Source of the DNA: Minisyncoccota bacterium
Lineage (GTDB): Bacteria > Patescibacteriota > Minisyncoccia > Phycocordibacterales > JACRKE01
Assembly: GCA_041660505.1 (NCBI GenBank)
Contig: JBAZWG010000001.1
Location: forward strand, 477,776-541,775
DNA: 64,000 nt
Reading direction: 5' to 3'
Below, piece after piece: positions 13,090 through 50,338 of the stretch. The notes below the pieces were generated by a model, which worked only from the letters and a program-made list of their open reading frames with translations, was not told where the DNA came from and ran no database searches. Both the position numbers and the translations under genes were made by a program. Positions within the stretch are counted from its first letter, which is position 1; the number at the start of each line of letters is the position of its first letter.

Positions 13090-16000
13090 ATGAGCATAAA
13101 AAGAATTTCAGGAGTCGTGGCGCTGTTAGCCACTGCCGGTATTGCATCGGTCGCAATGGCAGTTGGACCAGGTGCGCCAGCTACACCGACCATAACAGGC
13201 GGTAATTTGGTAAGCGGAACTATTTACGCAAGCTCTACAACTGCGATTCAGGCCAACGTTAACTTTACTGGAGTGGGTGCGGATGTAAGTGACCACATAC
13301 TCCTTTATCTCGACGGCTCTCTTTTCGGGGGGAAAGATTATACGATAACAGGGTCAGAGTTGGTTTCAACCACAAACAACCCCGTAGAATTCCAGTTTGT
13401 TGGAAGCGATCTGACCACTGAAGTGTCACACAATATTACCGCAGTTGCCAGTACTACCTCGGGCGGAGGATTCAGTGTAGAATCTGCTCCGGCGACAGTT
13501 ATTTTTGATAACACTACGCCGACACTTCCAACTGTTTCTATCGCTAGCAACGCGGCGAGCACGACTCTAGCAGGTGTGGGTCGAACTATAACAGTCTCTG
13601 TAAGCGCAAGTGAAAATCTCGACCCGGCCAAAGTTACGGGTACTATTGCTGGTCAAACAGCAACTGTAAGCGGAAGTGGTTCTTCATACACACTTTCTTA
13701 TACAATGACGGGAAGCGATACTCCTGAAATAGTTCCGTTTGCTATAAACTTTTCTGACCTCGCGGGTAATGCCGGGACGCAAGTTGTTTCTACTACTGAC
13801 GCTTCTTCAGTAACATTCGAAAAAACACTGCCAACGCTTAGTGCGATAATCTACTCTTCTAACGCAAGCTCAACACTTGCAAAGTCGGGGGACATAATTA
13901 CAATTGCGGCGAGTTCAAGCGAAGAAATATTCCCAGTATCTGCGACCATTGCAGGACAAACTGCCACAGTCGCTTCGACCAGCCCGACCGATTACTACTT
14001 CACCACAACTGTTGACGGAAGTCATGCTGAGGGACCTGTTGCTTTGGCGATAGACTTCTCTGATCTTGCCGGCAACGCGGGCACGCAAGTTGTTTCTGCA
14101 ACGGGAGTTGTAAGTATAGACAAGACCGCTCCAACCGCAGGTATTTCTTATGACATTAACCATGCGGTAAAAAATGGTACGTCGCTAACTATTACCGCAA
14201 CAACAACGGAATCTTTAATCACTGCTCCGCTTATTTCAATCACAGTGCCAGTAGGCGGAAGTAATGCGGTGTCGAATGTAAGCATGTCGACTTCGAACGA
14301 TAAGGTTTATGTTTATAGTTACACAGTTGGTACGAATGACGGCACGGCAAGTATTGCTTTGAGTGGAACGACAGATTTGGCCGGCAACACAATCACAGTA
14401 ACACCAACGAACGGCACGACATTCACCGTCGATAACACCGTACCGGCGGCACCAGTAGTAACTACGGTTGGCGGTACCGATAATAAAGTAAACGCCAGCG
14501 AAGCCTCGGCAATCATTGTTGTTGGCACGGCAGAAGCGAACGCTACAACGACAGTTTCTATAACAGACGGCGTAAACACAGTAACTAAAGATGGACTTGC
14601 CGATGGATCCGGAAATTATTCCATAACTCTGAACGGTACGACTGCCGTGCCAGCCGCACTCGCCGACGGCGTTATTACTGCATCAGTAACGGCGACAGAT
14701 ATCGCAGGCAATACCGGTCCTGCGGGAACGAAAGCAGTACTCCAGAATACCTCTGTCCCGATTGCACCAGTGCCCTCGATAACCAACAATATTAACAGCG
14801 CTGCAAGTACAACTGTTGCGCTGATCGGTACTGCGCAAAGTAACACTACGCTTTATTATTCAATCTCGGATGGCACTAAGTACCTAACCGGAACATCAAC
14901 TGTAGTAGCCGGCGCATTTAACGTGACCGGCCTCAATCTCTCGACATTTAACGAAGGGAGCATAACCGCGACGACGACAGTAACAGACTCGGTAGGGAAC
15001 GTGAGTTCTGTCGGAATAGCGACTCCAGGAACGAAGGATACCGTCGCTCCGGTATTTTCTTCTGTTACACCAGCCACCAACGCATATATAAAGAATGTAA
15101 CAACGAGCACCCAGCTTGGTTACACTTTGGGTGAATCGCTCGCGTCCGGTCTCGCGGTCTTCACGAGGACTGGTGGCACTGCCGATGGAACTGTTCATTC
15201 TTGTGCGCTCGCGGGTACAGCTAAAACAACTGGTGCCCCGCGTACGCTCGATATCTCAAACACGACTAATGGCTGTACGATAGTGCAGTCTCTCGTCTCT
15301 GGCTCTGTATATAGTATCGACTTCGGCGGGTCGGACGCGGCAGGGAACAATTCGGCAACCACGACTGTAACTGGCGTCACCTTCGATAATACATTACCTA
15401 CGCTCTCGCCGGTTTCTATTGCCTCAAGTAATGCGTCTACAACACTCGCAAAAGCAGGTGATGTTGTCACATTATCATTCACAAGTGATGAGCCAATCCA
15501 AACACCGACTGTAACAATTGCCGGCCATTCTGCCACTGTTCTGGATATGGGTAGCAACGTCTGGAATGCTTCGACAACCGTGCTTATCGGAGACACTAAT
15601 GCCGCTACGTCTTTCACAATCGACTTCACAGATCTCGCTAATAACGCCGGGACGCAGGTTGTTGCGATAACCAGCGGAAGTCCGGTGGTTATCGACACCG
15701 TTGCACCGACGGCGACACTTGCGTATTCACCGACGACGGCAGTTAAGCCAGGCGCGTCGCTCGTCATCACCGCAACATTGAGCGAGCCGATTGCTGATGC
15801 ACCGGTCTTGAACTTCGATATTTCCGGTCCTTATACTCAATCAGCGGCGGCGATGACAAAAACTGATAGTACACATTATGCAACAACGACCATTGTGGGT
15901 GTTGGAAACGGTTCCGCTTCGGTCAACTTGAGCAATGCAACTGACCTCGCGGGGAACGCAATCACTGGTCTCCCGACGAGCGGCGCGACCTTCACAGTAG

Positions 16001-19000
16001 ACAATGCTGTCCCTACGCTCTCCGGGGTTTCTATAAGCTCCTCGAATACGACACCGACACTTGCAAAAGCGGGGAATATAATAACGCTCGCATTCACGAG
16101 TAACGAGACAGTCCAAACGCCGACCGTCACAATAGCAACCCATTCTGCAACGGTACTGAATATGGGAGGTAATGTTTGGAATGCTTCGACAACAGTGTTA
16201 TCTAACGACTCCAACGCGGTTACACCATTCGCAATAGATTTTTCCGATATTGCCGGTAACGCAGGGACACAAGTAACGACAACAAACGATGCGTCAGGCG
16301 TTGTCATTGATACCGTCTTGCCGAATCTGTATCTCGAAACCGCGATAGCTTCGTTAGTTAACACCGCGACACCGAGTTTTGCATTCCGTTCCGATGAGGC
16401 GGGGAATGTCAGCTATTCCGGCGGGTGTACAGCAACTACACCTTCTGTAACTACGGCAACCACCACAATAACTTACAATTCACTTACCGATGCCACTTAT
16501 GGAAGTTGCGCGGTCAAGGTAACTGACGCTACTGGCAACCAAAGCTTGTCGCTCACGCTCCCAAGCTTCACTATCGATACACTCGCACCGACACTTTCTT
16601 CACGTTCTATTTCTTCGAATAATTCATCAACTACCCTAGCCGTTGTGGGCGACGTCGTCACACTCTCGATTACTTCAAGTGAAAATCTCGCCTTTGCTAC
16701 TAGTACAATAGCAGGTCGTTCCGCGGTGCTCGCAACCACATCTCCGACAACCTTCACTTTCACAATAACAATGAATAGCGGTGATGCAGAAACAGTCATA
16801 CCGTTCACTATCGACTTCACGGACTTTGCCGGTAACTCCGGTACACAAGTTTCTACTGTAAGTTCCGGTTCCAATGTCGTCTTCGATAAAACCGCACCGA
16901 CCCTCTCATCCGTTGCGATGGTATCTAATAATGCTTCTACCACACTGGCAAAGTCCGGTAATATTATCACCCTCTCGTTCACCTCCAGCGAGCCTATCCA
17001 GAATCCCTCGACAACCGTTATCGCTGGACATCTTGCGACCGTGACCGGGTCGGGTACAACATGGACTGCTACTTACACAATGAGCACAGGGAGTCAATCG
17101 GACGGGCCGGTTACCTTCACAATAGACTTCAAGGATAAAGCCGGCAATGATGGAACCACCGTCTCGGCTACGACCGATTCATCTGCGGTAACCTTCGACA
17201 AAACGGCACCGACATTATCTTCGGTATCAATTGCTTCTGACAACGCGAGCACTTCTCTCGCCAAGGTCGGCGACACTATTACTTTGTCATTTACGAGCAG
17301 CGAACCATTGTTGGCGGCCGGTGGGACTATAGCTGGACACACTGCGACATTGGCTACAACAAGCCCAACGACATTCACGCTTACAACCACGATGCTGGCC
17401 GGTGACACTACAGGAACAGTGTCATTCTCTGTGACGTTCACCGATAACGCTGGTAATGCTGGTAGCGCGGTTTCTGTTACCAGCAACGGCACGTCGGTTA
17501 AATTCGACAAAACCAACCCGACGGTCTCTGCCGGTTCAGACGCATCGGCGAATGCGCAATTCACTCAAAACGCAACAGCGAGTGACGCAGGCTCCGGTAT
17601 CGCGACTTATTCTTGGACGAAAACAGCCGGCTCGGGCACAATTACCTTCGGCACCCCTGTGGCGGAAGATACTACAGTAAGTGCATCAGTCGATGGTGCT
17701 TACACGATTCAACTTGTTGCAACAGATAACGCAGGCAATACCGCAACATCGACGGCGACAGTAACATGGGATGCCACCGCACCGACGATTGATATCACCG
17801 CACCGATAGAAGGACTGACAATCGCGACGACGACTTCGCTTACTGTAACAACAAGTGAGACAGCAACTTGTACTTATTCGCTCGACAGTGCGACATCAGT
17901 AACTCTCTCGACAACAGGCGGCACTTCTCACAGTGATACTTTAAGCAATGTTGCTTCCGGCGCACATTCGCTCACGACCACCTGTACTGATCTCGCGGCT
18001 AATATTGCCACCTCATCGACACGCTCGTTCACAGCTCTCACGACAAGCGGTAGCAGTATCACTGGCGGTTCCGGCCCGGTTGTCCTCGACAGCACTCCAA
18101 ACGATGGAGACGTAGCACTTCCGGGCGGGGTCACCAGCCTTACACTTTCCGCAAGTTCGCCACTCTCGGCTTCGACCAGCCTCTCTACTGTTGTGCCGGG
18201 TAGTCCAGGGAGCCTCATGCTCAATGGTGCGCCAGTCTTGCTTAACAACTTCACGATTGGAACAACTACTCGTGTTGGCCTCACGACTGCACAGACAGTA
18301 GGGGACAAAACTATAACCGTTGGCACCGGCTTTACCTTGCAGTCCGGTACGAACGGCACACCAATCACGATAGTTGGCAGTGGCACCGGCGTCAGTATGG
18401 ACTTGCCTGATGGTGTTTCAATCCTTGGACCAACAGGTTGGAACGGCCAAGTCTTGCCTCCGTCCGGCGGTACGACCAACGGCTCCGCACCTTCCGGCTT
18501 TACGGTTGGTGATTCATTCGAAATTGGTTCATCGGACGTACCGCTTCTCCTGACCCAAGCGGCAACCATCACCTTCCCAACTATCAAGCCGATGGTAATG
18601 CGCGTGACCGGTTCAAATACCTGGAACACTCTATCGACCTGTGCCGGCACTTACGCTGTACCAACGGCACCAGCGGCGTTCGGCGAATGTGCCATCGCGG
18701 GAACTTCTGCGACCAAGGTCCTGACATACCACTTGACAACCTTCGGCACGATCACAACGATTCCGGCTACAGTAACACAGAGTTCGAACGGGCCGATAAT
18801 TGGATCGTATGGAGGTAATAATGGTTCAGCTTCAGTGACTACCCCAACCCCAACGCCAACGCCAACGGCAACAAAGACAACCTCTGTTGTTTCGAAAATA
18901 ACTACAAAAGTACCGACAACGACAACGACCGGCAACAAGATTACTGCTCAAACTCCCGCAACTTCGCGTGCTGCGCTCATTGCTAAGTTGAACAGCCAAC

Positions 19001-19209
19001 TCGCCCAACTTCGCAGACAGTTGGCATTATTGAAGAATAACGCCCCCGCCTCGTCCGTAACTAATATCGCTAAAGTTAAGCCGAAAGTCGTTCCGCCAAT
19101 AGCAAACATCAGCGCCTTGAACGAAGAAAAAGTAACTGCGCCCAAAGCCACAACCACCAAGAAAAGCACAGGCTTCTTCGGTAAAGTCTTAAACTTCTTC
19201 GGATTCTAA
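13090..19209 (+). CDS. Giant (2039 aa) secreted surface protein with a signal peptide and at least 12 tandem Ig-like repeats of about 100 aa
   Basis: N-terminal signal (MSIKRISGVVALLATAGIASVAMA). Repeats of the form TLPTLS..SNASTTLAKAGD..IAGHSATV..FTIDFSDLAGNAGTQV. A TPTPTPTP linker and a C-terminal coiled segment. Confidence 0.8.
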   Translation: MSIKRISGVVALLATAGIASVAMAVGPGAPATPTITGGNLVSGTIYASSTTAIQANVNFTGVGADVSDHILLYLDGSLFGGKDYTITGSELVSTTNNPVEFQFVGSDLTTEVSHNITAVASTTSGGGFSVESAPATVIFDNTTPTLPTVSIASNAASTTLAGVGRTITVSVSASENLDPAKVTGTIAGQTATVSGSGSSYTLSYTMTGSDTPEIVPFAINFSDLAGNAGTQVVSTTDASSVTFEKTLPTLSAIIYSSNASSTLAKSGDIITIAASSSEEIFPVSATIAGQTATVASTSPTDYYFTTTVDGSHAEGPVALAIDFSDLAGNAGTQVVSATGVVSIDKTAPTAGISYDINHAVKNGTSLTITATTTESLITAPLISITVPVGGSNAVSNVSMSTSNDKVYVYSYTVGTNDGTASIALSGTTDLAGNTITVTPTNGTTFTVDNTVPAAPVVTTVGGTDNKVNASEASAIIVVGTAEANATTTVSITDGVNTVTKDGLADGSGNYSITLNGTTAVPAALADGVITASVTATDIAGNTGPAGTKAVLQNTSVPIAPVPSITNNINSAASTTVALIGTAQSNTTLYYSISDGTKYLTGTSTVVAGAFNVTGLNLSTFNEGSITATTTVTDSVGNVSSVGIATPGTKDTVAPVFSSVTPATNAYIKNVTTSTQLGYTLGESLASGLAVFTRTGGTADGTVHSCALAGTAKTTGAPRTLDISNTTNGCTIVQSLVSGSVYSIDFGGSDAAGNNSATTTVTGVTFDNTLPTLSPVSIASSNASTTLAKAGDVVTLSFTSDEPIQTPTVTIAGHSATVLDMGSNVWNASTTVLIGDTNAATSFTIDFTDLANNAGTQVVAITSGSPVVIDTVAPTATLAYSPTTAVKPGASLVITATLSEPIADAPVLNFDISGPYTQSAAAMTKTDSTHYATTTIVGVGNGSASVNLSNATDLAGNAITGLPTSGATFTVDNAVPTLSGVSISSSNTTPTLAKAGNIITLAFTSNETVQTPTVTIATHSATVLNMGGNVWNASTTVLSNDSNAVTPFAIDFSDIAGNAGTQVTTTNDASGVVIDTVLPNLYLETAIASLVNTATPSFAFRSDEAGNVSYSGGCTATTPSVTTATTTITYNSLTDATYGSCAVKVTDATGNQSLSLTLPSFTIDTLAPTLSSRSISSNNSSTTLAVVGDVVTLSITSSENLAFATSTIAGRSAVLATTSPTTFTFTITMNSGDAETVIPFTIDFTDFAGNSGTQVSTVSSGSNVVFDKTAPTLSSVAMVSNNASTTLAKSGNIITLSFTSSEPIQNPSTTVIAGHLATVTGSGTTWTATYTMSTGSQSDGPVTFTIDFKDKAGNDGTTVSATTDSSAVTFDKTAPTLSSVSIASDNASTSLAKVGDTITLSFTSSEPLLAAGGTIAGHTATLATTSPTTFTLTTTMLAGDTTGTVSFSVTFTDNAGNAGSAVSVTSNGTSVKFDKTNPTVSAGSDASANAQFTQNATASDAGSGIATYSWTKTAGSGTITFGTPVAEDTTVSASVDGAYTIQLVATDNAGNTATSTATVTWDATAPTIDITAPIEGLTIATTTSLTVTTSETATCTYSLDSATSVTLSTTGGTSHSDTLSNVASGAHSLTTTCTDLAANIATSSTRSFTALTTSGSSITGGSGPVVLDSTPNDGDVALPGGVTSLTLSASSPLSASTSLSTVVPGSPGSLMLNGAPVLLNNFTIGTTTRVGLTTAQTVGDKTITVGTGFTLQSGTNGTPITIVGSGTGVSMDLPDGVSILGPTGWNGQVLPPSGGTTNGSAPSGFTVGDSFEIGSSDVPLLLTQAATITFPTIKPMVMRVTGSNTWNTLSTCAGTYAVPTAPAAFGECAIAGTSATKVLTYHLTTFGTITTIPATVTQSSNGPIIGSYGGNNGSASVTTPTPTPTPTATKTTSVVSKITTKVPTTTTTGNKITAQTPATSRAALIAKLNSQLAQLRRQLALLKNNAPASSVTNIAKVKPKVVPPIANISALNEEKVTAPKATTTKKSTGFFGKVLNFFGF
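13480..17530 (+). repeat. Tandem array of roughly 300-bp coding repeats (Ig-like domain units) inside the giant surface-protein gene
   Basis: Recurrent peptide blocks FSDLAGNAGTQVV and DKTAPTLS at about 100-aa spacing. Confidence 0.7.
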
Positions 19210-43186: not shown

Positions 43187-43917
43187 AAAAATTATTAGGT
43201 CTCATTATTCTTATTATTTTTGCCGCGCTTATTTGGTTTGGCAAGCAATCTTCGCAGCCGGATTATACTGTCGTTACGAGTAAGATAGGCGAAGAGAATG
43301 TCGCAGAGAAATATTCGCTAGATCTAGAGTACCCCTCGTTTCTTTCGGACAGCCAGAAATTTCAATTTATAAACGCCGACATCCACGAACTCATTGCGAC
43401 GACCAGTTTACAATTTCACGAGAATGCTAAAGACTACGCGCAATACATCAAAGATAATAATCTCGAAGCGGAAGGATTAACTCAAGGGAGCTCTCTTGTT
43501 ATTGGGTATGAGGTGGCTACCGGTACGACAGGAGTGTTACCGGTGAAGATAGTAATAGAAGAGTACAATGCCGGTGCGGCGCATCCGAACCATATCACGG
43601 TGACGCGTAATTATGACATATCAATGCAGAAGATCTTGAGTCTTGCGGATTTGTTCGCACAGAACGTGGACTATCTGGCCGTGATTGCGAAATATAGCAA
43701 GAGAGCCCTAGAGAAAAAATTCGAAGCGGACCAAGTACCGACAGATCCAGAATGGCTTGCAACTGGGACGGAGCCGAAGGCAGAGAACTATGAAGCCTGG
43801 CTCGCAGAAGCAGATGGCCTACACATAATCTTCAACGAATATCAGGTGGTCGCGTATGCCTACGGCGTACCAGAAATAGTTATCCCATGGAACGAACTTC
43901 AGAAGATCAAAAAATAA
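43183..43917 (+). CDS. Hypothetical secreted/membrane-anchored protein (DUF3298/DUF4163-like)
   Basis: N-terminal TM segment ([16 protein letters not shown]); composition resembles DUF3298/DUF4163 domains. Confidence 0.4.
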
Positions 43918-44939
43918 AGCAAGAGAAGACTTTTGTTTCGCGCGGTGGGCTCAAGCTTGAACATGCGCTCAATGAATTTAAGGTAGATGTGGCTGGCCTC
44001 ACTGTTCTTGATGTCGGCTCGTCAACAGGAGGCTTCGTCGACTGCTTACTCCAACGCGGTGCGGCCAAGGTCTTTGCTGTCGATACCGCCTATGGCGAGT
44101 TCGCATGGACTCTGCGCAACGACCCGCGCGTGGTCGTGATGGAGCGGACGAATATTTTACATCTTAAAGAGCTTTCAAGTTCCACCAACCTCACCCCTGC
44201 ACCCCTCTCCGAAGGAGAGGGGGAATTTGGATACCAAAAAACGGACCCGAAAACATGGCATTTATTACAAGAAGCCACATTGGAAATGCGAAAGAATCCC
44301 ACTCAAGCGGAAAAAATTTTGTGGGAAGCATTAAGAGACCTTGCCCCCTCTCCCTCTGGGATGGCGGGGATAAGGTTTCGAAGGCAACATATCATCGGCC
44401 GATTTATTTCAGATTTCGTATGTTTACCAAAGAGACTCGTAGTTGAAGTAGACGGAGATATTCACGATTATCAAAAAGCCGCTGATGAAATTCGCACAGA
44501 ATATCTTACGAATCTTGGCTATACTGTTATCAGATTTAACAATGATAGAGTCTTAAATGATCTACAAAATGTAATCAGAGAAATTGAATCTCGTATTCAT
44601 CCCCCCTCTCCTTCGGAGAGGGGGACGGGGGGTGAGGTTGTCGACTTCATCACAATAGACGCGAGCTGGACCAAGCTTACGCTAATCTTACCGGTAGTGC
44701 AGAAGTTTTTGAAACCCAGTGGGAGAGTCATTGCGCTACTCAAGCCACATTATGAAGCTTCGCAATCGATCTTGCGTAAGGGCGTCTTGAAGGACGATAA
44801 AGTGGCAGAGATTGTGACGAAAGTGTCCGCCACTATCGAAGCTCAGGGCTGGAAAATAAACGGCCAAACAGAGTCACCGATACTCGGCGGAGGAGGTAAT
44901 AGAGAGTTCTTGATACTACTTACTCTTAAACAGCCATAG
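43887..44939 (+). CDS. tlyA: TlyA-family rRNA (cytidine-2'-O)-methyltransferase (FtsJ fold, no S4 domain) carrying an in-frame DUF559 (Vsr-like endonuclease) domain insertion
   Basis: FtsJ motifs [12 protein letters not shown] and [27 protein letters not shown] are at the N-terminus, and the methyltransferase C-terminal part follows the insert. The inserted DUF559 block is KILWEALR ... [34 protein letters not shown] ... [13 protein letters not shown]. Confidence 0.75.
44202..44223. repeat. Family C GC hairpin (CCCCTCTCC-GAAG-GGAGAGGGG) at the 5' boundary of the DUF559 insertion in tlyA
   Basis: Perfect 9-bp stem with a GAAG tetraloop; translated as PLSEGEGE. Confidence 0.8.
44602..44624. repeat. 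Family C GC hairpin (CCCCCTCTC-CTTCG-GAGAGGGGG) at the 3' boundary of the DUF559 insertion in tlyA
   Basis: 9-bp stem with a TTCG-type loop; translated as [10 protein letters not shown]. Confidence 0.8.
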
Positions 44940-44949
44940 AATAAAGAGT

Positions 44950-45351
44950 GTGAAAATTCCCGCAGACATTGCTAAAAAGTTTCTCGAGTGGATCAAAGTA
45001 AAGATTTTCACTGAAATTTCTGGTCGCCACTTGATTTTCAGTGAAGGTGAGATCTGGTGGACAAGTATCGGGCACAATATTGGTATGGAATCAAACGGTA
45101 AGAATGAAAACTTTGAACGCCCGGTGCTGATACTTCGTAAATTCGGCAAAGACTCATTCTGGGGAATTTCTGTTTCGAGTAATATTAGAATAGACCATTT
45201 CTACTATAGATTTAAGTTAAAAGGAGAAGAGTATTGTCTTAATCTCTCTCAACTTCGGCTATTAAGCTCAAAAAGATTACTGAGGCGCGTCGGTTATTTT
45301 AACGCGGAAGATTTTACTAAGGTCAGATCTCTCATTAAAGATTTGGTATAA
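44950..45351 (+). CDS. MazF/PemK-like toxin fold protein (solo, no adjacent antitoxin)
   Basis: EGEIWWTSIGHNIGMESNGKNENFERPVLIL resembles the MazF motif GD(I/V)(V/W)W..GxEQxGxRPxLVL. Confidence 0.4.
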   Translation: MKIPADIAKKFLEWIKVKIFTEISGRHLIFSEGEIWWTSIGHNIGMESNGKNENFERPVLILRKFGKDSFWGISVSSNIRIDHFYYRFKLKGEEYCLNLSQLRLLSSKRLLRRVGYFNAEDFTKVRSLIKDLV

Positions 45352-45356
45352 AAAAC

Positions 45357-45378
45357 GGAACCCCCTTGCGGGGGTTCC
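45357..45378. terminator. GC hairpin (ggaaccccc-ttgc-gggggttcc) with a flanking A/T run; its orientation favours minus-strand termination
   Basis: aaaaaacggaacccccttgcgggggttcc. Confidence 0.45.
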
Positions 45379-45440
45379 TCGGGTCTCCATGGCTGGAGCA
45401 TAATGAGGATAGTATACCCCGCCACCCCAGCTTTTCCTAC

Positions 45441-45470
45441 TTGACAGATAGCCGTAAAGTATGCTAAATT
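45441..45470 (+). promoter_or_regulatory. Putative promoter upstream of the DGR target gene (TTGACA, 18-nt spacer, TAAATT), followed by a 240-nt leader with a 9-codon uORF (45677-45706)
   Basis: ttgacagatagccgtaaagtatgctaaatt; the uORF MAKKSESKV is preceded by an aaaggag RBS. Confidence 0.35.
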
Positions 45471-45712
45471 ATATGGCAGTTTTGACAACTAAATACTTGC
45501 GAACATAAAGCTGGTTTCAGCCCCTAGAATATAGCCACTTGGACATTCCGTGTCCAAGTGAAGTGAAGGCTGTATTTTGAGGGCTGAATACCAGCATACT
45601 GGCAAACCTGAATCGCTGGCATACTGCTAGCGCGTGAGGTGAGCCATCCCGCCGAGGCGGGAGAAAGGAGCCAGAAATGGCTAAGAAATCAGAGTCCAAG
45701 GTCTGAGCGATC

Positions 45713-46342
45713 GTGTCGGCGATGGGGGTTCTCCTCACCGTACTCACCGCCATCGTCACCGGCCTCCGCAGGAGGAAAGTGACGGAGGCCATGGTCTACG
45801 AGCTCGGGACGCCGGAAGGTGTGCCAACGCTCGAGAGGATCATGGATGCCGTCGCGGGGATTTTGGTCCCCATGACAGAGGCAGCCAAAGTGGCCGTCGA
45901 AACCGTCCGCGACTTCATTTCCCTCCGGGCCACGGTCGAATGCGATTTCGACAAAGGCCTTAAGGCGGTCGTTGAACTGGTCAAGAAGGCATTGGGGCTG
46001 ACCTACGTCAACCCCGACGTCTTCAAAATCGAGTGGTCATGGAAGGGGTTGCAAAACCTCGACATGGCCCTGTTCCATTTCAACAGGAACATGTCGACCG
46101 ACGCCGCGGAGAAGGAGATGGACGATGCGGGCTATCGGCCCGCAAACATTGCGGAGTTGCTTTTCTTCGCACTGTTCCACCCCGAGCTCTTCTTGAGCTA
46201 TCCGCTGGTTGCTCTAGGCTCGCAGTTCGGCGACTACTCGCCGTGCCTGTACGGTTGGTGCGGCGGCCACCGCAGCCTGAGCCTCCACCTTCGGGGCGGC
46301 GCTTGGTACGGCTTCTCTCGGTCCCTCGGTGTCCGCAAGTAA
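45713..46342 (+). CDS. DGR target (variable) protein, GC-rich, with an N-terminal hydrophobic anchor and the variable region in the last 41 codons (CLec/FGE-like C-terminus ending GFSRSLGVRK)
   Basis: The C-terminal 124 nt (VR, 46216-46339) match TR at 46695-46818 with 24 of 25 differences at TR adenines. GC content is clearly higher than in neighbouring genes. The ORF track starts at GTG 45713; an ATG is at 45722. Confidence 0.8.
   Translation: MSAMGVLLTVLTAIVTGLRRRKVTEAMVYELGTPEGVPTLERIMDAVAGILVPMTEAAKVAVETVRDFISLRATVECDFDKGLKAVVELVKKALGLTYVNPDVFKIEWSWKGLQNLDMALFHFNRNMSTDAAEKEMDDAGYRPANIAELLFFALFHPELFLSYPLVALGSQFGDYSPCLYGWCGGHRSLSLHLRGGAWYGFSRSLGVRK
46216..46339 (+). repeat. DGR variable repeat (VR)
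   Basis: Compared with TR: 25 mismatches, 24 at positions where TR has A (VR has G, T or C), and one T-to-C. Confidence 0.85.
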
Positions 46343-46406
46343 CTTCGAAAACTGGTCACCGGAGACCCTGGGCATTTCCTTGCCCTTGGTCTCCTTGACC
46401 CCTGGA

Positions 46407-46433
46407 CCCCGCGTTCTATCACAGAACGCGGGG
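46407..46433 (+). other. GC-rich hairpin downstream of VR (ccccgcgttct-atcac-agaacgcgggg), consistent with the DGR stem-loop that follows the IMH region
   Basis: 11-bp perfect stem located 68 nt after the VR end. Confidence 0.6.
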
Positions 46434-46694
46434 TTTGCATTTATAAACCACTTTGATATGCTCAACCTCGGATAGTAGGCGAATCTGCTCGCGGTTACGA
46501 CTTCGAGCGGCCGAACTCTGAAAATTAGATTGCCGGAGTTGTGTCGGTTGCGGCTTGCACAAGTGTGCGCTCTAATCTTTCTAAAAACTGAAGATACTTG
46601 GTGCGGTGTGCTACGGGATTATAGATCTCGAAGACGTTACAACCCCGAGAGTACTCGAGGGGCCGTGATCGGACGGCATATCGCGCAACGTGGC

Positions 46695-46818
46695 AGGCTC
46701 ACAGTTCGACGACTACTCGCCGTACCTGAACGATTGGAACGACGACAACCGCAACCTGAACCTCAACCATCGGAGCAACGATTGGAACGACAACTATCGG
46801 TTCCTCGGTGTCCGCAAA
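46695..46818 (+). repeat. DGR template repeat (TR), adenine-rich (AAC codons), non-coding
   Basis: Homolog of VR; adenines occupy the variable positions; not part of a credible ORF. Confidence 0.85.
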
Positions 46819-46830
46819 TCTCTTCACTTC

Positions 46831-47163
46831 TCATCCTCGCCTTGGCGGGGATTGAGTTTCTTTAAGCAAGTTATTCCGCCAGCCACCCAGCATTTTCCCT
46901 ATTTCATCAAGCTGTGTCGATAGTGTAATGTACTTTTTGTTATCAAGTATTTTTGTCTCCCACAATATGCGCATCAGAAACTTCAAAAGATCAAAACGAG
47001 CAGAAGCTTTTTCAATATACAGAAGCTTTTTCGTCCTATCTTGGAAACTTGCAGTGAAGATCAAATCTATGCATTCTAGGAATACCACGTCAATTTTCCC
47101 TCCCAGAGAGTATTTTGACTTCTTGGGTAGGTGGTCTAGGTATTCTGTCCATAGTTTATACAC
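46831..47163 (-). CDS. avd: Accessory variability determinant (Avd)-like four-helix-bundle protein (23S rRNA IVS protein family)
   Basis: 110-aa helical protein; ...ARFDLLKFL ... LSTQLDEIGKMLGGW resembles the four-helix-bundle/Avd family. It sits between TR and the RT on the opposite strand (GTG start). Confidence 0.55.
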   Translation of the reverse strand: MYKLWTEYLDHLPKKSKYSLGGKIDVVFLECIDLIFTASFQDRTKKLLYIEKASARFDLLKFLMRILWETKILDNKKYITLSTQLDEIGKMLGGWRNNLLKETQSPPRRG

Positions 47164-47198
47164 AGTAACCAGCCTGTCGAGTATCGTCAGGCTGTTTC

Positions 47199-47209
47199 GG
47201 GGGGGGGGG
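47199..47209. repeat. Homopolymeric G11/C11 tract between the avd start and the RT start
   Basis: ctgtttcgggggggggggtactttt, 45 nt upstream of the RT ATG and 36 nt upstream of the avd start on the other strand. Confidence 0.8.
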
Positions 47210-47253
47210 TACTTTTAAAGTTTTGGTTTTCCATAATTTGAGAACCCTACCAT

Positions 47254-48228
47254 ATGAGGAAACAACTTACAACAAGTTATGAAGAAATCATCAGCGTCGA
47301 GAACTTACTGCTTGCATGGCAAGAATTCGTTTCTGATAAGAGGAGCAATCCTAACGTGCAACTATTCCAGCTCCGCCTGATGGATCATATAATGTTGCTC
47401 CACTGGGAGCCTGCGAATTTTACCCATGTGCATAGTGGCTATACGCTTTCGAAAATCTTTGAGCCGAAAGAGCGCGACATTCATAAAGCCGGCGTCCGTG
47501 ATCGACTGCCCTGCCACGCGATTCATCGCAAGTTGTATCCATTCTTTGATACAACGTTTATTTCGCATTCGTACTCGTGCAGACTAAAAAAGGGCACACA
47601 CCGGGCTTGTAACTGTTTCAGAAAATTTTATATAAAAGCGAGTAGGAGTAAAAGTCGCACCTGTTGGGTATTGAAATGCGATATACGCAAATTCTTCGCC
47701 AACATCGACCACCAAATCTTGTTCGATATTCTCGCTCAATATATTCCTGACGAAAATGTGGCATGGTTACTCGAGAAAGTAATTTCCAGCTTTGAGCCCG
47801 GCCTTCCACTCGGTAATCTCACTTCACAACTATTTGTAAACATATATATGAACGAGTTCGATCAGTATGTTAAACATAAACTCAAGGCAAAGTATTATAT
47901 CAGATATGCAGATGATTTCGTATTTCTTTCAGAAGACAAAGCTTGGCTTGAGCAACTCGTTCCTGTAATTTCTGATTTTCTTAAAACTCGACTCAAACTT
48001 TCTTTACATCCCAAGAAGATTTCTATTAATACGCTCGCCTCCGGTGTCGATTTTCTTGGCTGGGTGCACTTTCCTAATTATCGCGTGCTACGGACAATGA
48101 CCAAAAAGAGGATGTTCAGGAATATCAGGCGCAAATTGCGTAATCTGGCCACTCTACAATCGTATCTGGGGTTGCTGCAACATGGCAATACGCAGAAATT
48201 ACGAAATATGCTATACTCTCACACATAG
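47254..48228 (+). CDS. Reverse transcriptase, DGR type
   Basis: RT motifs: RDRLPCHAI, motif A LKCDIRKFFANIDH, motif 4 LPLGNLTSQLFVNIYMNEFD (DGR signature [ILV]GxxxSQ), motif C YIRYADDFVFL, motif D LSLHPKK, motif E VDFLGW. At 324 aa it has no maturase or endonuclease domain. Confidence 0.85.
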   Translation: MRKQLTTSYEEIISVENLLLAWQEFVSDKRSNPNVQLFQLRLMDHIMLLHWEPANFTHVHSGYTLSKIFEPKERDIHKAGVRDRLPCHAIHRKLYPFFDTTFISHSYSCRLKKGTHRACNCFRKFYIKASRSKSRTCWVLKCDIRKFFANIDHQILFDILAQYIPDENVAWLLEKVISSFEPGLPLGNLTSQLFVNIYMNEFDQYVKHKLKAKYYIRYADDFVFLSEDKAWLEQLVPVISDFLKTRLKLSLHPKKISINTLASGVDFLGWVHFPNYRVLRTMTKKRMFRNIRRKLRNLATLQSYLGLLQHGNTQKLRNMLYSHT

Positions 48229-48249
48229 CAATTAGTTAATATAAATATT

Positions 48250-48804
48250 ATGAGCAAAAAATGGTGGATTTTACTTGTCGTTGTTGTTGTGGCCCTCGGC
48301 TATTGGATGATGACTTATAACCGATTTATTAAGCTTGACCAGGGTATCCAGGGTCAATGGGCGCAGGTAGAGACGCAGTATCAGCGCCGCTTTGACCTCA
48401 TTCCTAACCTTGTAAATTCTGTGAAGGGCGCAATGACCCAAGAGCAGGCGGTATTCGATGCGATTGCAGAGGCGCGCACGCAGTATGGTGGCGCAAGAAC
48501 ACTGGATGAAAAGGTGGCCGCGACAAACCAAGTCGAATCATCGTTGTCTCGTTTGCTTGCGGTGATAGAGAATTATCCGCAACTAAAGTCGATCGACACT
48601 GTTCAAACGCTCATGGCACAGCTTGAGGGCACAGAGAATCGCATCAGCGTGGAGCGCGGAAGATTCAATGATGCAATCAAATCTTACAACACCTCCGTCC
48701 AACTTTTCCCTTCAAGTATTATTGCTAGAATCTCCGGCTTCAGTGTTAAAGCCTTCTTCGAATCTGCACCGGGCGCCGAGAAAGCTCCGGAAGTGCAGCT
48801 CTAA
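48250..48804 (+). CDS. lemA: LemA family protein
   Basis: N-terminal TM helix and the LemA core (YNRFIKLDQGIQGQWAQVETQYQRRFDLIPNLV). Confidence 0.85.
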   Translation: MSKKWWILLVVVVVALGYWMMTYNRFIKLDQGIQGQWAQVETQYQRRFDLIPNLVNSVKGAMTQEQAVFDAIAEARTQYGGARTLDEKVAATNQVESSLSRLLAVIENYPQLKSIDTVQTLMAQLEGTENRISVERGRFNDAIKSYNTSVQLFPSSIIARISGFSVKAFFESAPGAEKAPEVQL

Positions 48805-48807
48805 TTC

Positions 48808-49683
48808 TTGATGAAAAAATTAGCACTACTTTTTCTCCTGCTCGCACCGGCAGTTTCGTCGGCATATTATCAGCTTTCACGGCCCACTGGCTTTGTGAAT
48901 GATACTGCGAATATGCTTGCGCCTGCAGATGCTACAACGCTTGAGGCGAAGATTTCGGCTTTCGAGAAAAAGTCAGGCAATGAAATTGCTATAGTCACGA
49001 TACCTTCTCTCGATGGCGACACAGTCGAGAACTTTGCCGTTAAGCTTTTTGCAGATTGGGGGATAGGGAAGAAAGATAAAGATAACGGCGTCCTGCTCCT
49101 CGTTGCCCGTGATGACAGAAAGATGAAAATAGAAGTGGGCTATGGCCTCGAGGGTGCCTTAACCGATGCGCAGAGTTATTGGATTACTCGTGATATTCTG
49201 ACGCCTGCGTTCAAGGCTGGCAATTACGCGCAGGGTATTAATGACGCGACCGACAAAATTATTTCAGCGACACAAGGCGAAGTTTTACCTACTGCTGAAC
49301 CCACAACAAATGCTGGAGATATAGACTATTTTTGGGTATTTTTCATTGCTGTGATGTTGATTGAATGGCTCGGGGCTATTCTCGCGCGCTCCAAATCGTG
49401 GTGGGCGGGTGGAGTTATTGGAGGCGCTGTTGCTGGTTTGGCCGGTTTCTTTATGGCTTCGGCCGGGATATTTATTATCTCGGCAATTGTACTTATACCC
49501 GCAGGGCTTTTGTTCGATTACATCGTTTCGAAAAATTATACGAAAGGTAAGGCGAATGGCCACTTCCCATGGTGGATTGGCGGTGGGGGCAGCGGCTGGG
49601 GCGGAGGATCCGGAGGTGGAGGGGGATTTGGCGGCTTCGGCGGAGGATCGTCCGGCGGCGGTGGAAGCTCCGGAAGCTGGTGA
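48808..49683 (+). CDS. TPM-domain (YgcG-like) membrane protein with a C-terminal Gly-rich tail
   Basis: TPM phosphatase domain (GFVNDTANMLAPADATTLEAKISAFEKKSGNEIAIVTIPSL), TM segments and a GGGSGWGGGSGGGGGFGGFGGGSSGGGG tail. Typical partner of lemA. Confidence 0.8.
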   Translation: MMKKLALLFLLLAPAVSSAYYQLSRPTGFVNDTANMLAPADATTLEAKISAFEKKSGNEIAIVTIPSLDGDTVENFAVKLFADWGIGKKDKDNGVLLLVARDDRKMKIEVGYGLEGALTDAQSYWITRDILTPAFKAGNYAQGINDATDKIISATQGEVLPTAEPTTNAGDIDYFWVFFIAVMLIEWLGAILARSKSWWAGGVIGGAVAGLAGFFMASAGIFIISAIVLIPAGLLFDYIVSKNYTKGKANGHFPWWIGGGGSGWGGGSGGGGGFGGFGGGSSGGGGSSGSW

Positions 49684-49689
49684 ACTGAA

Positions 49690-49742
49690 CAAGTTATAAA
49701 GTTTGTAAAGTTCATAAAGTTTGAAAGTTGAAAGTTACAAAG
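49690..49742. repeat. Family E tandem AAAGTT-containing octamer array (six to seven units)
   Basis: aagttataaagtttgtaaagttcataaagtttgaaagttgaaagttacaaagt. Similar arrays are at 761-798 and 12997-13010. Confidence 0.7.
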
Positions 49743-49754
49743 TAGATCCAGAAG

Positions 49755-50338
49755 ATGGAAAAGAAAATAAAGTCTCGATGCACTTGGCCGAAAGATGATG
49801 CGCAAATGATTAAGTATCATGATACGGAATGGGGAGTGCCACAGCATGATGATAAAATATTGTTCGAATACATCGTACTCGACACGTTCCAGGCCGGGCT
49901 GTCATGGCAAATAATTTTGCGAAAGCGCGCGGGATTTAAAAAGGCGTTCAAAACTTCGACGTTAAGAAAGTGGCGAAGATGACGAGCGCGGATGTAGCGA
50001 GGCTTATGAAAGACACTAGCATTATCCGTAATAGGTTAAAAATAGCTGGCACGATTAAAAATGCACAAGCCTTTCTGAATGTCCAAAAAGAGTTCGGCTC
50101 ATTTGAAAAATATTTGTGGCAATGGGTAAGGAATAAGCCAATAATTCATTCACATAAACAATCAAGTGATATCGGGGCGACCTCTAAAGAATCAGATGCC
50201 TTGAGTAAAGACTTGAAAAAGCGCGGTATGACCTTCGTTGGCAGCACTATTATATATGCGTTCATGCAAGGCGCTGGCCTGGTTAATGATCATCTGATAT
50301 CATGCTTTAGATACAGAGAAATTCAAAAACTAAAATGA
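49755..50338 (+). pseudogene. tag: DNA-3-methyladenine glycosylase I (Tag), disrupted by a 1-nt frameshift in an A4 run (about 49950-49953)
   Basis: Two consecutive ORFs (49755-49982 and 49970-50338) together cover Tag (YHDTEWGVPQHDDKILFEYIVLDTFQAGLSWQIIL ... SADVARLMKDTSIIRNRLKI ... FVGSTIIYAFMQGAGLVNDH). The frames join if caaaac were caaaaac. Confidence 0.7.

Follow-up and report, generated by a model that had tools for sequence, protein, structure and literature searches.

How is cDNA synthesis primed in diversity-generating retroelements (DGRs)? The mechanism is known from one phage element only, that of Bordetella phage BPP-1 (mtd-avd-TR-Sp-brt; PDB 8ub7), in which the essential RNA lies 3' of the template repeat (TR). 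The Bordetella RNA for cDNA synthesis comprises 20 nt upstream of TR, TR itself, and 140 nt of downstream spacer RNA (Sp) (Handa et al., bioRxiv 10.1101/2023.10.23.563531). In that RNA, Sp3-33 is the stem-loop that binds Avd (the accessory variability determinant), Sp53-56 base-pairs to the TR 3' end, and the 2'-OH of A56 primes; after two linker nucleotides, Sp59-70 pairs just upstream of TR and forms the "cPRT Stop" at which the cDNA terminates. A short stem-loop, unpaired adenosines, a long single-stranded "Thumb Ring," and a stem-loop that binds the phage reverse transcriptase (bRT) follow. For other DGRs, the same study covered only the 40 nt before and the 100 nt after TR. The only motif that Weinberg et al. 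2017 tied to a DGR, RT-10, also lies 3' of TR (PMC5737381). In the Patescibacteria, or candidate phyla radiation (CPR), an antisense gene takes this position, and so priming has been unclear there. Here, we describe a DGR of this group at 45713-48228 of a 64,000-nt chromosomal stretch (the window) from a Minisyncoccota bacterium (GenBank assembly GCA_041660505.1, contig JBAZWG010000001.1, positions 477,776 to 541,775), together with a conserved RNA leader that lies 5' of its TR.

The closest described systems are the CPR/DPANN DGRs of architecture B3, TR-(avd)-RT, where RT is the reverse transcriptase; they account for 90% of CPR DGRs (Wu et al. 2018, PMC5758913), and their RNA structure and promoters were not discussed in that study. 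Their counterpart in Roux et al. (PMC8144416) is "DGR clade 2," which is restricted to Patescibacteria. The window element is an ordinary member of this well-described clade and differs from it in nothing essential. It has the B3 order of TR, reverse-strand avd, and RT in a Candidatus Paceibacterota host; it shares host group, gene order, strands, and a single adjacent small target without recognizable domains, and its RT is 55-77% identical to thousands of CPR RTs. Since thousands of CPR genomes have already yielded members of this clade, one more example adds little. We read it as a chromosomal Patescibacteria DGR of layout target-VR/TR-(avd)-RT (VR, variable repeat), with adenine-specific divergence, an intact RT and Avd, and an RNA mechanism proposed by analogy with the phage, and give this reading a probability of roughly 0.9.

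An Adenine-Specific Repeat Pair with a DGR-Type Reverse Transcriptase

Does the locus carry the signature of adenine-specific mutagenesis? A repeat finder run over 44000-50000 returned a single long direct repeat (46216-46346 and 46695-46825; 131 nt, 79% identity). Its first copy contains the VR, which forms the last 42 codons of the target gene and ends at the stop codon of this open reading frame (ORF), the protein ending ...GFSRSLGVRK. Over 124 nt, VR and TR differ at 25 positions, 24 of them TR adenines (A>G 14, A>T 6, A>C 4); the sole other mismatch is a T>C (TR 46802, VR 46323). Counted by template base, 24 of 36 adenines and 1 of 88 non-adenines have changed (one-sided Fisher p = 1.1e-15). 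Nearly all TR adenines (33/36) fall at codon positions 1-2 of the VR reading frame, in which TR has nine AAC codons, and a stop codon can be reached by adenine mutation in the last codon (AAA) only. VR contains no stop and could in theory encode about 5e19 proteins. Both repeats close with an identical GC-rich block (CTCGGTGTCCGCAA) and diverge beyond it; by analogy with the Bordetella IMH/IMH* (initiation of mutagenic homing) described in PMC5758913, the VR 3' end is a candidate IMH-like site. The first-pass annotation had proposed a search for additional VR copies. In the 64-kb window we found none (on both strands, with each A read as N and as many as 25 further mismatches allowed), nor was a second RT found there.

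The proteins agree with the repeats. Against solved structures, the RT (324 aa) matches 8ub7_A best (E = 9e-35) and over its full length (residues 9-297 on 9-290), followed by a group II intron RT (E = 3e-16) and a retron RT (E = 1e-13). We take 8ub7_A to be bRT, because a fold search names 8ub7 "Diversity-generating retroelement (DGR) ribonucleoprotein." In the alignment, LGNLTSQLFVNIY lies opposite IGSLTSQLFANVY of bRT, LGNLTSQ opposite IGSLTSQ, and YADD opposite YMDD. The RT has more than 8000 homologues, with top matches all from Patescibacteria, and phage RT relatives are at most 38% identical to it. The 110-aa ORF on the opposite strand passes the Pfam bAvd threshold (PF22296, 55.7 bits; cutoff 40), and it is the best NCBIfam match for DivGenRetAVD (68.5 bits, under the 80-bit cutoff). 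A sequence search of this ORF against the PDB gave no match; a fold search alone recovered Avd, the AlphaFold2 model (predicted local distance difference test score 81) superposing on Bordetella phage Avd 4dwl with a template-modeling score of 0.80.

A quite different origin would be an ordinary partial gene duplication beside an unrelated retron or group II RT, with an adenine bias due to chance or composition. Such a view could draw on the names that databases give: the best NCBIfam match of the RT is a group II maturase model, at 125 bits far under its 300-bit cutoff, and the GenBank name of the RT is "reverse transcriptase/maturase family protein" (identical protein in a "Candidatus Paceibacterota bacterium" metagenome-assembled genome [MAG], whose protein identical to the target is named "hypothetical protein"). 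It is refuted for practical purposes by the adenine bias (Fisher p 1e-15), by an RT whose match to bRT is far stronger than that to group II or retron RTs, and by the same biased pair in 66 related loci; Avd lies next door, and no group II intron or retron RNA family was detected with Rfam. That the element is a DGR we regard as virtually certain.

How typical is its layout? For comparison, we used 80 genome loci with RTs of 54-65% identity, nearly all from Patescibacteria MAGs. The avd gene lies on the opposite strand, 43-113 nt upstream of RT, in 75 of the 76 loci with sequence upstream of RT. An adenine-biased VR/TR pair is present on the RT strand in 66 loci, with a VR-TR spacing of ~360-540 nt and with TR abutting the 3' end of avd. 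The first-pass annotation had called the opposite-strand avd unusual for DGRs. Given the B3 share of CPR DGRs and the 75/76 related loci, it is instead the norm for this host group. The rest of that annotation's core stands on repeat, profile, and structure evidence: a complete DGR with target, VR/TR pair, Avd, and RT, of a kind already standard in Patescibacteria, as its remark that DGRs are common in CPR implied. Its count of 25 mismatches with 24 at TR adenines, its AAC-rich TR, its RT with DGR-type YADD and LGNLTSQ motifs, and its reading of the 110-aa ORF as an Avd-like four-helix bundle were all recovered.

The resemblance to BPP-1 extends from the adenine-specific transfer from TR to VR and the xGxLTSQ and YxDD motifs of the RT to the four-helix fold of Avd, a target of predicted C-type-lectin fold with a C-terminal VR, and a stem-loop directly 3' and a helix directly 5' of TR. 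The window element differs from BPP-1 in being chromosomal rather than phage borne, in having avd on the opposite strand and 3' of TR, which leaves no free TR-RT spacer, in a post-VR hairpin that is terminator-like and ~60 nt away, and in structured nontemplate RNA 5' of TR that has no match to Rfam RT-10.

A Conserved Structured Leader RNA Brackets the Template Repeat

What lies between VR and TR? An alignment of the spacers between VR and TR shows nucleotide-level conservation over their 3' ~225 nt among related loci whose RT proteins are only ~60% identical. RNAalifold, applied to a structure-blind MAFFT alignment of 66 loci, predicts five helices (P1-P5; Table 1) with 42 pairs, of which 38 show compensatory two-sided changes. 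A total of 94.0% of the alignment cells at these pairs are paired, compared with 67.0% in shuffles (0/500 reach the observed value) and 41-47% in slid registers; the covariation score is 0.81, against 0.29 and 0.13-0.17, respectively. A covariance model (R1) was built from 32 loci, the window among them. In each of 38 loci outside the training set, it found one full-length match directly 5' of TR (57-194 bits, E 1e-12 to 1e-48), including a paralogous locus in the same genome (L001, leader 1014-1256) and a locus (L015) whose whole leader-TR-avd module is inverted relative to RT. In the window, which is part of the training set, R1 has a single match (170 bits) with all helices intact. The conserved single strand between P4 and P5 (consensus GAAUAaGAUACA) holds several invariant columns.

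The leader also meets both edges of TR. TR/VR homology starts a median of 3 nt (interquartile range 2-5; 65 loci) after the last P3 pair. At the other edge, the leader segment UGAAGA is complementary to UCUUCA 3' of TR, and the two co-vary among relatives (AUGAAGA/UCUUCAU, AUAAAGA/UCUUUAU, AUGAAAA/UUUUCAU, AUGAAAU/AUUUCAU, AUGAAGC/GCUUCAU, GUGAG/CUCAC, and ACCA/UGGU). Ungapped, anchor-based alignment of the two segments did not succeed in ~12 loci, and this duplex was therefore tested in an alignment-free way. Cognate segments pair on average at -5.07 kcal/mol and noncognate ones at -3.59 kcal/mol (z -7.5; 0/20000 permutations as low). In structure-blind alignments, 67% of cells are paired in register vs. 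45-51% in slid registers.

The leader has no match in Rfam 15 (whole window at gathering thresholds; 45350-47300 at E <= 5). These scans gave only tRNAs and noise, and no RT-associated motif, RT-10, group II intron, or retron RNA. A small ORF was considered for this region and rejected: no conserved ORF covers the leader, the ORFs of the window and L001 read TR in different frames, and the conservation is not 3-periodic. We found no description of the leader in the literature, with one 2026 bioRxiv preprint (on coevolutionary mining of noncoding elements, mentioning DGRs) possibly relevant. The leader RNA is apparently undescribed, may do the job of the phage downstream spacer RNA, and is very likely a functional part of the DGR RNA.

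Where might this RNA begin and end? A -10-like box (TGATATGCT) lies at 46454-46462, with TTTGCA 17 nt upstream, and in the leader alignment an extended -10 box with TG is kept at the same distance from TR (consensus TTTTTGnTATAAT / TATACT). We infer that this element is the promoter of the DGR RNA. On the far side of TR, a stem-loop with a CUUG loop and a U-rich tract overlaps the last avd codons on the other strand, and relatives keep a variable stem followed by AGTTTTGTTTT or AGUUUUGUUUU after TR. By its fold and terminator-like score, it probably terminates the DGR RNA and forms its 3' end. It is also a possible Avd-binding stem-loop, by analogy with those that Handa et al. place just 3' of TR in 207/278 DGRs.

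These elements suggest a path for mutagenic retrohoming. A noncoding RNA of ~395 nt would run from the promoter at ~46434-46462 to the terminator at ~46833-46863 and comprise leader, TR, and terminal stem-loop; RT and Avd would bind it. Synthesis of cDNA would start at the 3' edge of TR, with misincorporation opposite adenines, and stop at P3, which abuts the 5' edge. The cDNA would then replace VR, recoding ~23 codons of the ligand-binding face and creating no internal stops. In this scheme, UGAAGA (46589-46594) and UCUUCA (46821-46826) would form the primer:template duplex and P3 the stop duplex, with P4, the conserved single strand, and P5 taking the parts of the stem-loop, thumb-ring, and RT-binding elements. 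Read from the leader on, the succession would be primer-like strand, linker UACUUG, 5' strand of P3, P4, single strand, P5, TR, and terminal stem-loop; the chain would open between the terminal stem-loop and the leader, where in the phage it opens between the RT-binding stem and the upstream strand. We infer the transcript ends, the priming site, and the element-by-element phage correspondence from this arrangement. We tentatively suggest that the leader might be a counterpart of Sp in circular permutation and provide the primer. Because antisense avd fills the region 3' of TR, this RNA would have been displaced to the 5' side.

Alternatively, the leader could belong to the DGR RNA without being the Sp equivalent, acting as a 5' domain for stability, processing, or regulation, with priming from sequence 3' of TR (antisense to avd), as in the phage, or from nicked target DNA. 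The 3' side of TR indeed has a conserved stem-loop and flanking bases of its own; Handa et al. predicted downstream stem-loops and upstream/downstream duplexes in the 207/278 Avd-containing DGRs with only 40 nt of upstream sequence, and P1 and P2 have no phage counterpart. However, from ~35 nt past the 3' end of TR onward, conserved positions follow the 3-nt period of the avd reading frame and not an RNA pattern, the terminator-like hairpin and U-tract follow TR immediately, and both TR edges coincide with leader helices. We consider this alternative less likely than not, if with appreciable weight.

How does the leader compare with other RT-associated RNAs? RT-10, the Sp RNA between TR and brt (PMC5737381), is likewise a structured noncoding RNA beside TR with a proposed priming role, but the leader is found on the opposite side of TR, comprises five helices in ~220 nt, and shows no match to it at E <= 5. 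The msr-msd RNA of retrons resembles it as an RT-associated structured RNA with internal 2'-OH priming, as in the phage DGR and as proposed here; retrons differ in lacking a TR/VR pair, Avd, and retrohoming, and the window RT is much closer to bRT.

Several observations weigh against our reading of the element and its RNA. The minimum free energy of the leader as a single sequence is no better than that of shuffles (z -0.9), and the structure thus rests on covariation. The leader:post-TR duplex is short (6-7 bp), pairs in just the 67% of cells given above, and fits L001 and the L003 group poorly; it is less secure than P1-P5. The transcript ends are predicted from sequence motifs, and a generic sigma-70 two-hexamer scan missed the proposed promoter. 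The match of leader to Sp is one of connectivity, not of sequence or Rfam family (no RT-10 match). Finally, the protein database holds one VR version only.

Table 1. Positions of the described features in the window; the last line gives the second DGR of the same genome in coordinates of its own contig
Feature	Position	Strand	Basis or remark
Target (variable protein) gene, 209 aa	45713..46342	+	NCBI start ATG 45722, giving 206 aa
VR	46216..46339	+	Codes last ~42 target residues; weak TR homology on to 46346
Candidate IMH-like VR 3' end (CTCGGTGTCCGCAAG)	46324..46339	+	Equals TR save final A>G; non-A mismatch 46323 just upstream
Post-VR region: degenerate CTTNG-like pentamer array and composite hairpin (46354-46400)	46343..46400	+	Folding
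14-bp GC-rich hairpin with T-rich tail	46404..46445	+	Stem 46404-46436, -24.6 kcal/mol, z -6.1
Promoter-like element for DGR RNA: TTTGCA, 17-nt spacer, TATGCT	46434..46462	+	TG at 46454-46455 (extended -10)
Conserved structured DGR RNA leader, five helices	46468..46688	+	RNAalifold on MAFFT alignment of 66 loci
Leader helix P1	46487-46495/46500-46508	+	RNAalifold
Leader helix P2	46531-46533/46567-46569 and 46539-46549/46552-46562	+	RNAalifold
Leader segment UGAAGA, candidate primer strand, preceded by A-run	46589..46594	+	Complementary to UCUUCA 3' of TR
Leader helix P3	46601-46612/46675-46686	+	RNAalifold
Leader helix P4	46616-46619/46625-46628	+	RNAalifold
Leader helix P5 (variable-length hairpin)	46642-46646/46659-46663	+	RNAalifold
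TR	46695..46818	+	Noncoding; 36 adenines; 9 AAC codons in VR frame
Post-TR segment UCUUCA, proposed partner of 46589-46594	46821..46826	+	Co-varying complementarity
Stem-loop (46833-46852) with CUUG loop and U-rich tract	46833..46863	+	Terminator-like score; fold
avd, 110 aa	46831..47163	-	Convergent with DGR RNA, divergent from RT; Pfam bAvd PF22296
G11 homopolymer tract, avd-RT intergenic	47199..47209	+	Read from sequence
DGR RT, 324 aa, YADD and LGNLTSQ	47254..48228	+	Pfam RVT_1; best solved relative 8ub7_A
Second DGR, L001 (Logan contig SRR18595301_113215, 1-2790)	Target 131-868; VR 763-864; TR 1278-1379; avd 1392-1724; RT 1819-2790	Target +; avd -; RT +	

Is the Element Active?

The single database version of VR, the one non-A mismatch between VR and TR, and the finding that many genomic DGRs are inactivated (Wu et al., PMC5758913) could all be taken to mean that the window holds a relic, a DGR that once diversified its target and is now inactive, its VR a frozen variant. 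Decay of this kind would sit poorly with the condition of the locus. All ORFs are intact, the catalytic YADD is present, only 1 of 88 non-A positions differs, the leader scores 170 bits with every helix in place, VR has no stop, and TR retains its nine AAC codons. In addition, a relative with the same layout shows recent turnover at adenine sites. We therefore find a relic improbable and predict that the window copy is currently active, a view we hold with fair but not high confidence.

The relative in question is a pair of loci from different MAGs (L038 and L039) that differ at 22 of 2477 aligned positions. As many as 17 of these differences fall in the 134-nt VR (L038 2690-2823, L039 2689-2822) and five elsewhere; of those in VR, 16 coincide with TR adenines. 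This pattern shows natural activity of the layout and recent diversification in the clade, not of the window copy itself. The same genome and the same contig carry a second complete DGR outside the window (L001), with an RT 77% identical and the same architecture. All 11 of its 11 VR/TR mismatches are at adenines; its target is an unrelated 245-aa protein, and the locus adjoins the gene for ribosomal protein L25.

A Poly-G Tract and Other Apparently Clade-Wide Features

Between avd and RT, the window has a run of 11 Gs. The corresponding position holds G7-G14 in 62/73 related loci and a (GT)n or (GA)n repeat in a few others. The median distance from the run to the downstream position that aligns with the start of RT is 15 nt, and in 26/65 loci TAnnnT comes 0-2 nt after the run. 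Close relatives differ in its length: L038 and L039 by one GA unit, and L003 (G9) and L058 (G8) by one G between almost identical flanks. These lengths come from MAGs, where homopolymer lengths are error-prone. By its sequence, the tract looks like a contingency (phase-variation) repeat acting on the expression of RT, avd, or both; it may alternatively have a Shine-Dalgarno-like role. If the former is true, the hypermutation machinery would be under phase-variable control.

The region after VR is also distinctive. In relatives, the target stop codon is followed by three to seven copies of a CTTNG motif (CTTGG, CTTAG, CTTTG, or CTCGG) at a spacing of 7-8 nt. Across the clade, such motifs number 4.1 per 110 nt post-VR vs. 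0.77 in the background, with CTTAG enriched 23-fold. The window has a degenerate form of the array inside a strong composite hairpin. A by-eye look saw no covariation of the post-VR array with the CUUGG of the leader.

Farther downstream stands the GC hairpin that the first-pass annotation had noted after VR. It is real, with a stem of 14 bp rather than the 11 bp given there, and a GC hairpin with a T-run recurs at the same place in related loci. Because it begins ~60 nt past VR and is followed by the T-run and then by the promoter-like box, we read it as probably the intrinsic terminator of the target gene and not as a Bordetella-type cruciform.

Four features appear to be shared across the entire clade: the leader RNA, the poly-G tract, the CTTNG array, and the high GC content at third codon positions (GC3) of the target (see below). 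None of them is mentioned in the CPR DGR papers (Wu et al., Roux et al.). Taken jointly, they would describe a clade-wide CPR (B3) system in which a ~220-nt, five-helix 5' leader makes up a permuted avd-TR-Sp RNA, an adenosine near 46594 primes, P3 sets the 5' limit of the cDNA, and a poly-G, GT, or GA tract gates the DGR phase-variably. As a whole, this picture is speculative, and we would sooner expect part of it to fail than all of it to hold. A covarying leader that brackets TR nevertheless offers a concrete priming model for the most abundant DGR architecture of CPR, and the covariance model could serve TR annotation in CPR genomes. The other three features may be relevant to regulation, to how target sites are recognized, and to what a DGR costs its host in evolution.

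The Target Protein

What kind of protein is being diversified? In the predicted structure, the target has a helical N-terminal region and a C-type-lectin-like core at residues ~70-209, with VR at its C-terminal end. The assignment to the C-type-lectin fold comes from this model: sequence searches against Pfam, NCBIfam, and the PDB returned no match for the window protein or for any of 15 homologues, and neither a formylglycine-generating enzyme (FGE)-sulfatase (PF03781) nor a DUF1566 Pfam match occurs among these 16 family members. The lectin half of the earlier "CLec/FGE-fold" proposal is thus what the predicted fold and the C-terminal VR favor; neither an FGE nor a C-type-lectin sequence family matched. 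Identity to known C-type-lectin DGR proteins (Treponema TvpA 2y3c, the C-terminal domain of Legionella Lcl 8q4e, and the tip of Bdellovibrio Bd2740 8oks) is 6-14%, and the window target differs from them in its very small size (209 aa), its helical N-terminal part, and its lack of a clear export signal. Targets of CPR clade-2 DGRs are typically without recognizable transmembrane or other domains (Roux et al., PMC8144416).

The N terminus had been described as hydrophobic and the protein as probably surface-displayed. An apolar stretch of ~14-18 residues does exist, but it is merely borderline (Kyte-Doolittle 19-residue maximum 1.66), and RRRK follows the stretch instead of preceding it. We saw no canonical signal peptide by hydropathy and N-terminal inspection. 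The homologues mostly have amphipathic N termini, and 2 of 15 resemble signal-peptide or lipobox proteins. With no canonical signal peptide, RRRK after the stretch, and few export-like homologues, surface display is not supported.

As first noted, the target is more GC-rich than its neighbors, with 0.58-0.61 over the target vs. 0.38-0.46 over avd and RT. The excess lies mainly at third codon positions and is largely synonymous (GC3 0.80 vs. 0.42-0.47 for avd and RT). Across the clade, targets average a GC3 of 0.618, flanking ORFs 0.444, and RTs 0.420, and target GC3 exceeds RT GC3 in 51/56 loci (Wilcoxon p 5e-10). Adenine mutagenesis was considered as the cause of the high GC of the whole target and rejected, because outside VR adenine is not depleted relative to thymine (AT skew ~0 to +0.1).

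Upstream of the target, a noncoding stretch of ~300 nt contains a promoter-like TTGACA-18-TAAATT with TG (45441-45470), followed by an inverted repeat with 21-nt arms (45516-45536 and 45568-45588). From these motifs, 45441-45588 may comprise the target promoter and a structured 5' untranslated region.

Neighboring Genes

Directly upstream of the DGR lies a low-GC ORF for a PemK/MazF-like toxin (44950-45351, +; Pfam 27.8 bits, cutoff 23.1), with no obvious antitoxin ORF alongside. Before it, an FtsJ/TlyA-like methyltransferase ORF (43887-44939, +) carries an in-frame DUF559 (endonuclease-like) insert flanked by 33-nt inverted repeats (44194-44226 and 44599-44631; CCCCTCTCC...GGAGAGGGG), which resembles a mobile in-frame insertion. 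On the other side of the element, a gene for a TPM-domain protein (48808-49683, +) has a Gly/Ser-rich tail encoded by imperfect tandem repeats (49580-49665). By far the largest ORF in the window, of 2039 aa, spans 13090-19209 (+).

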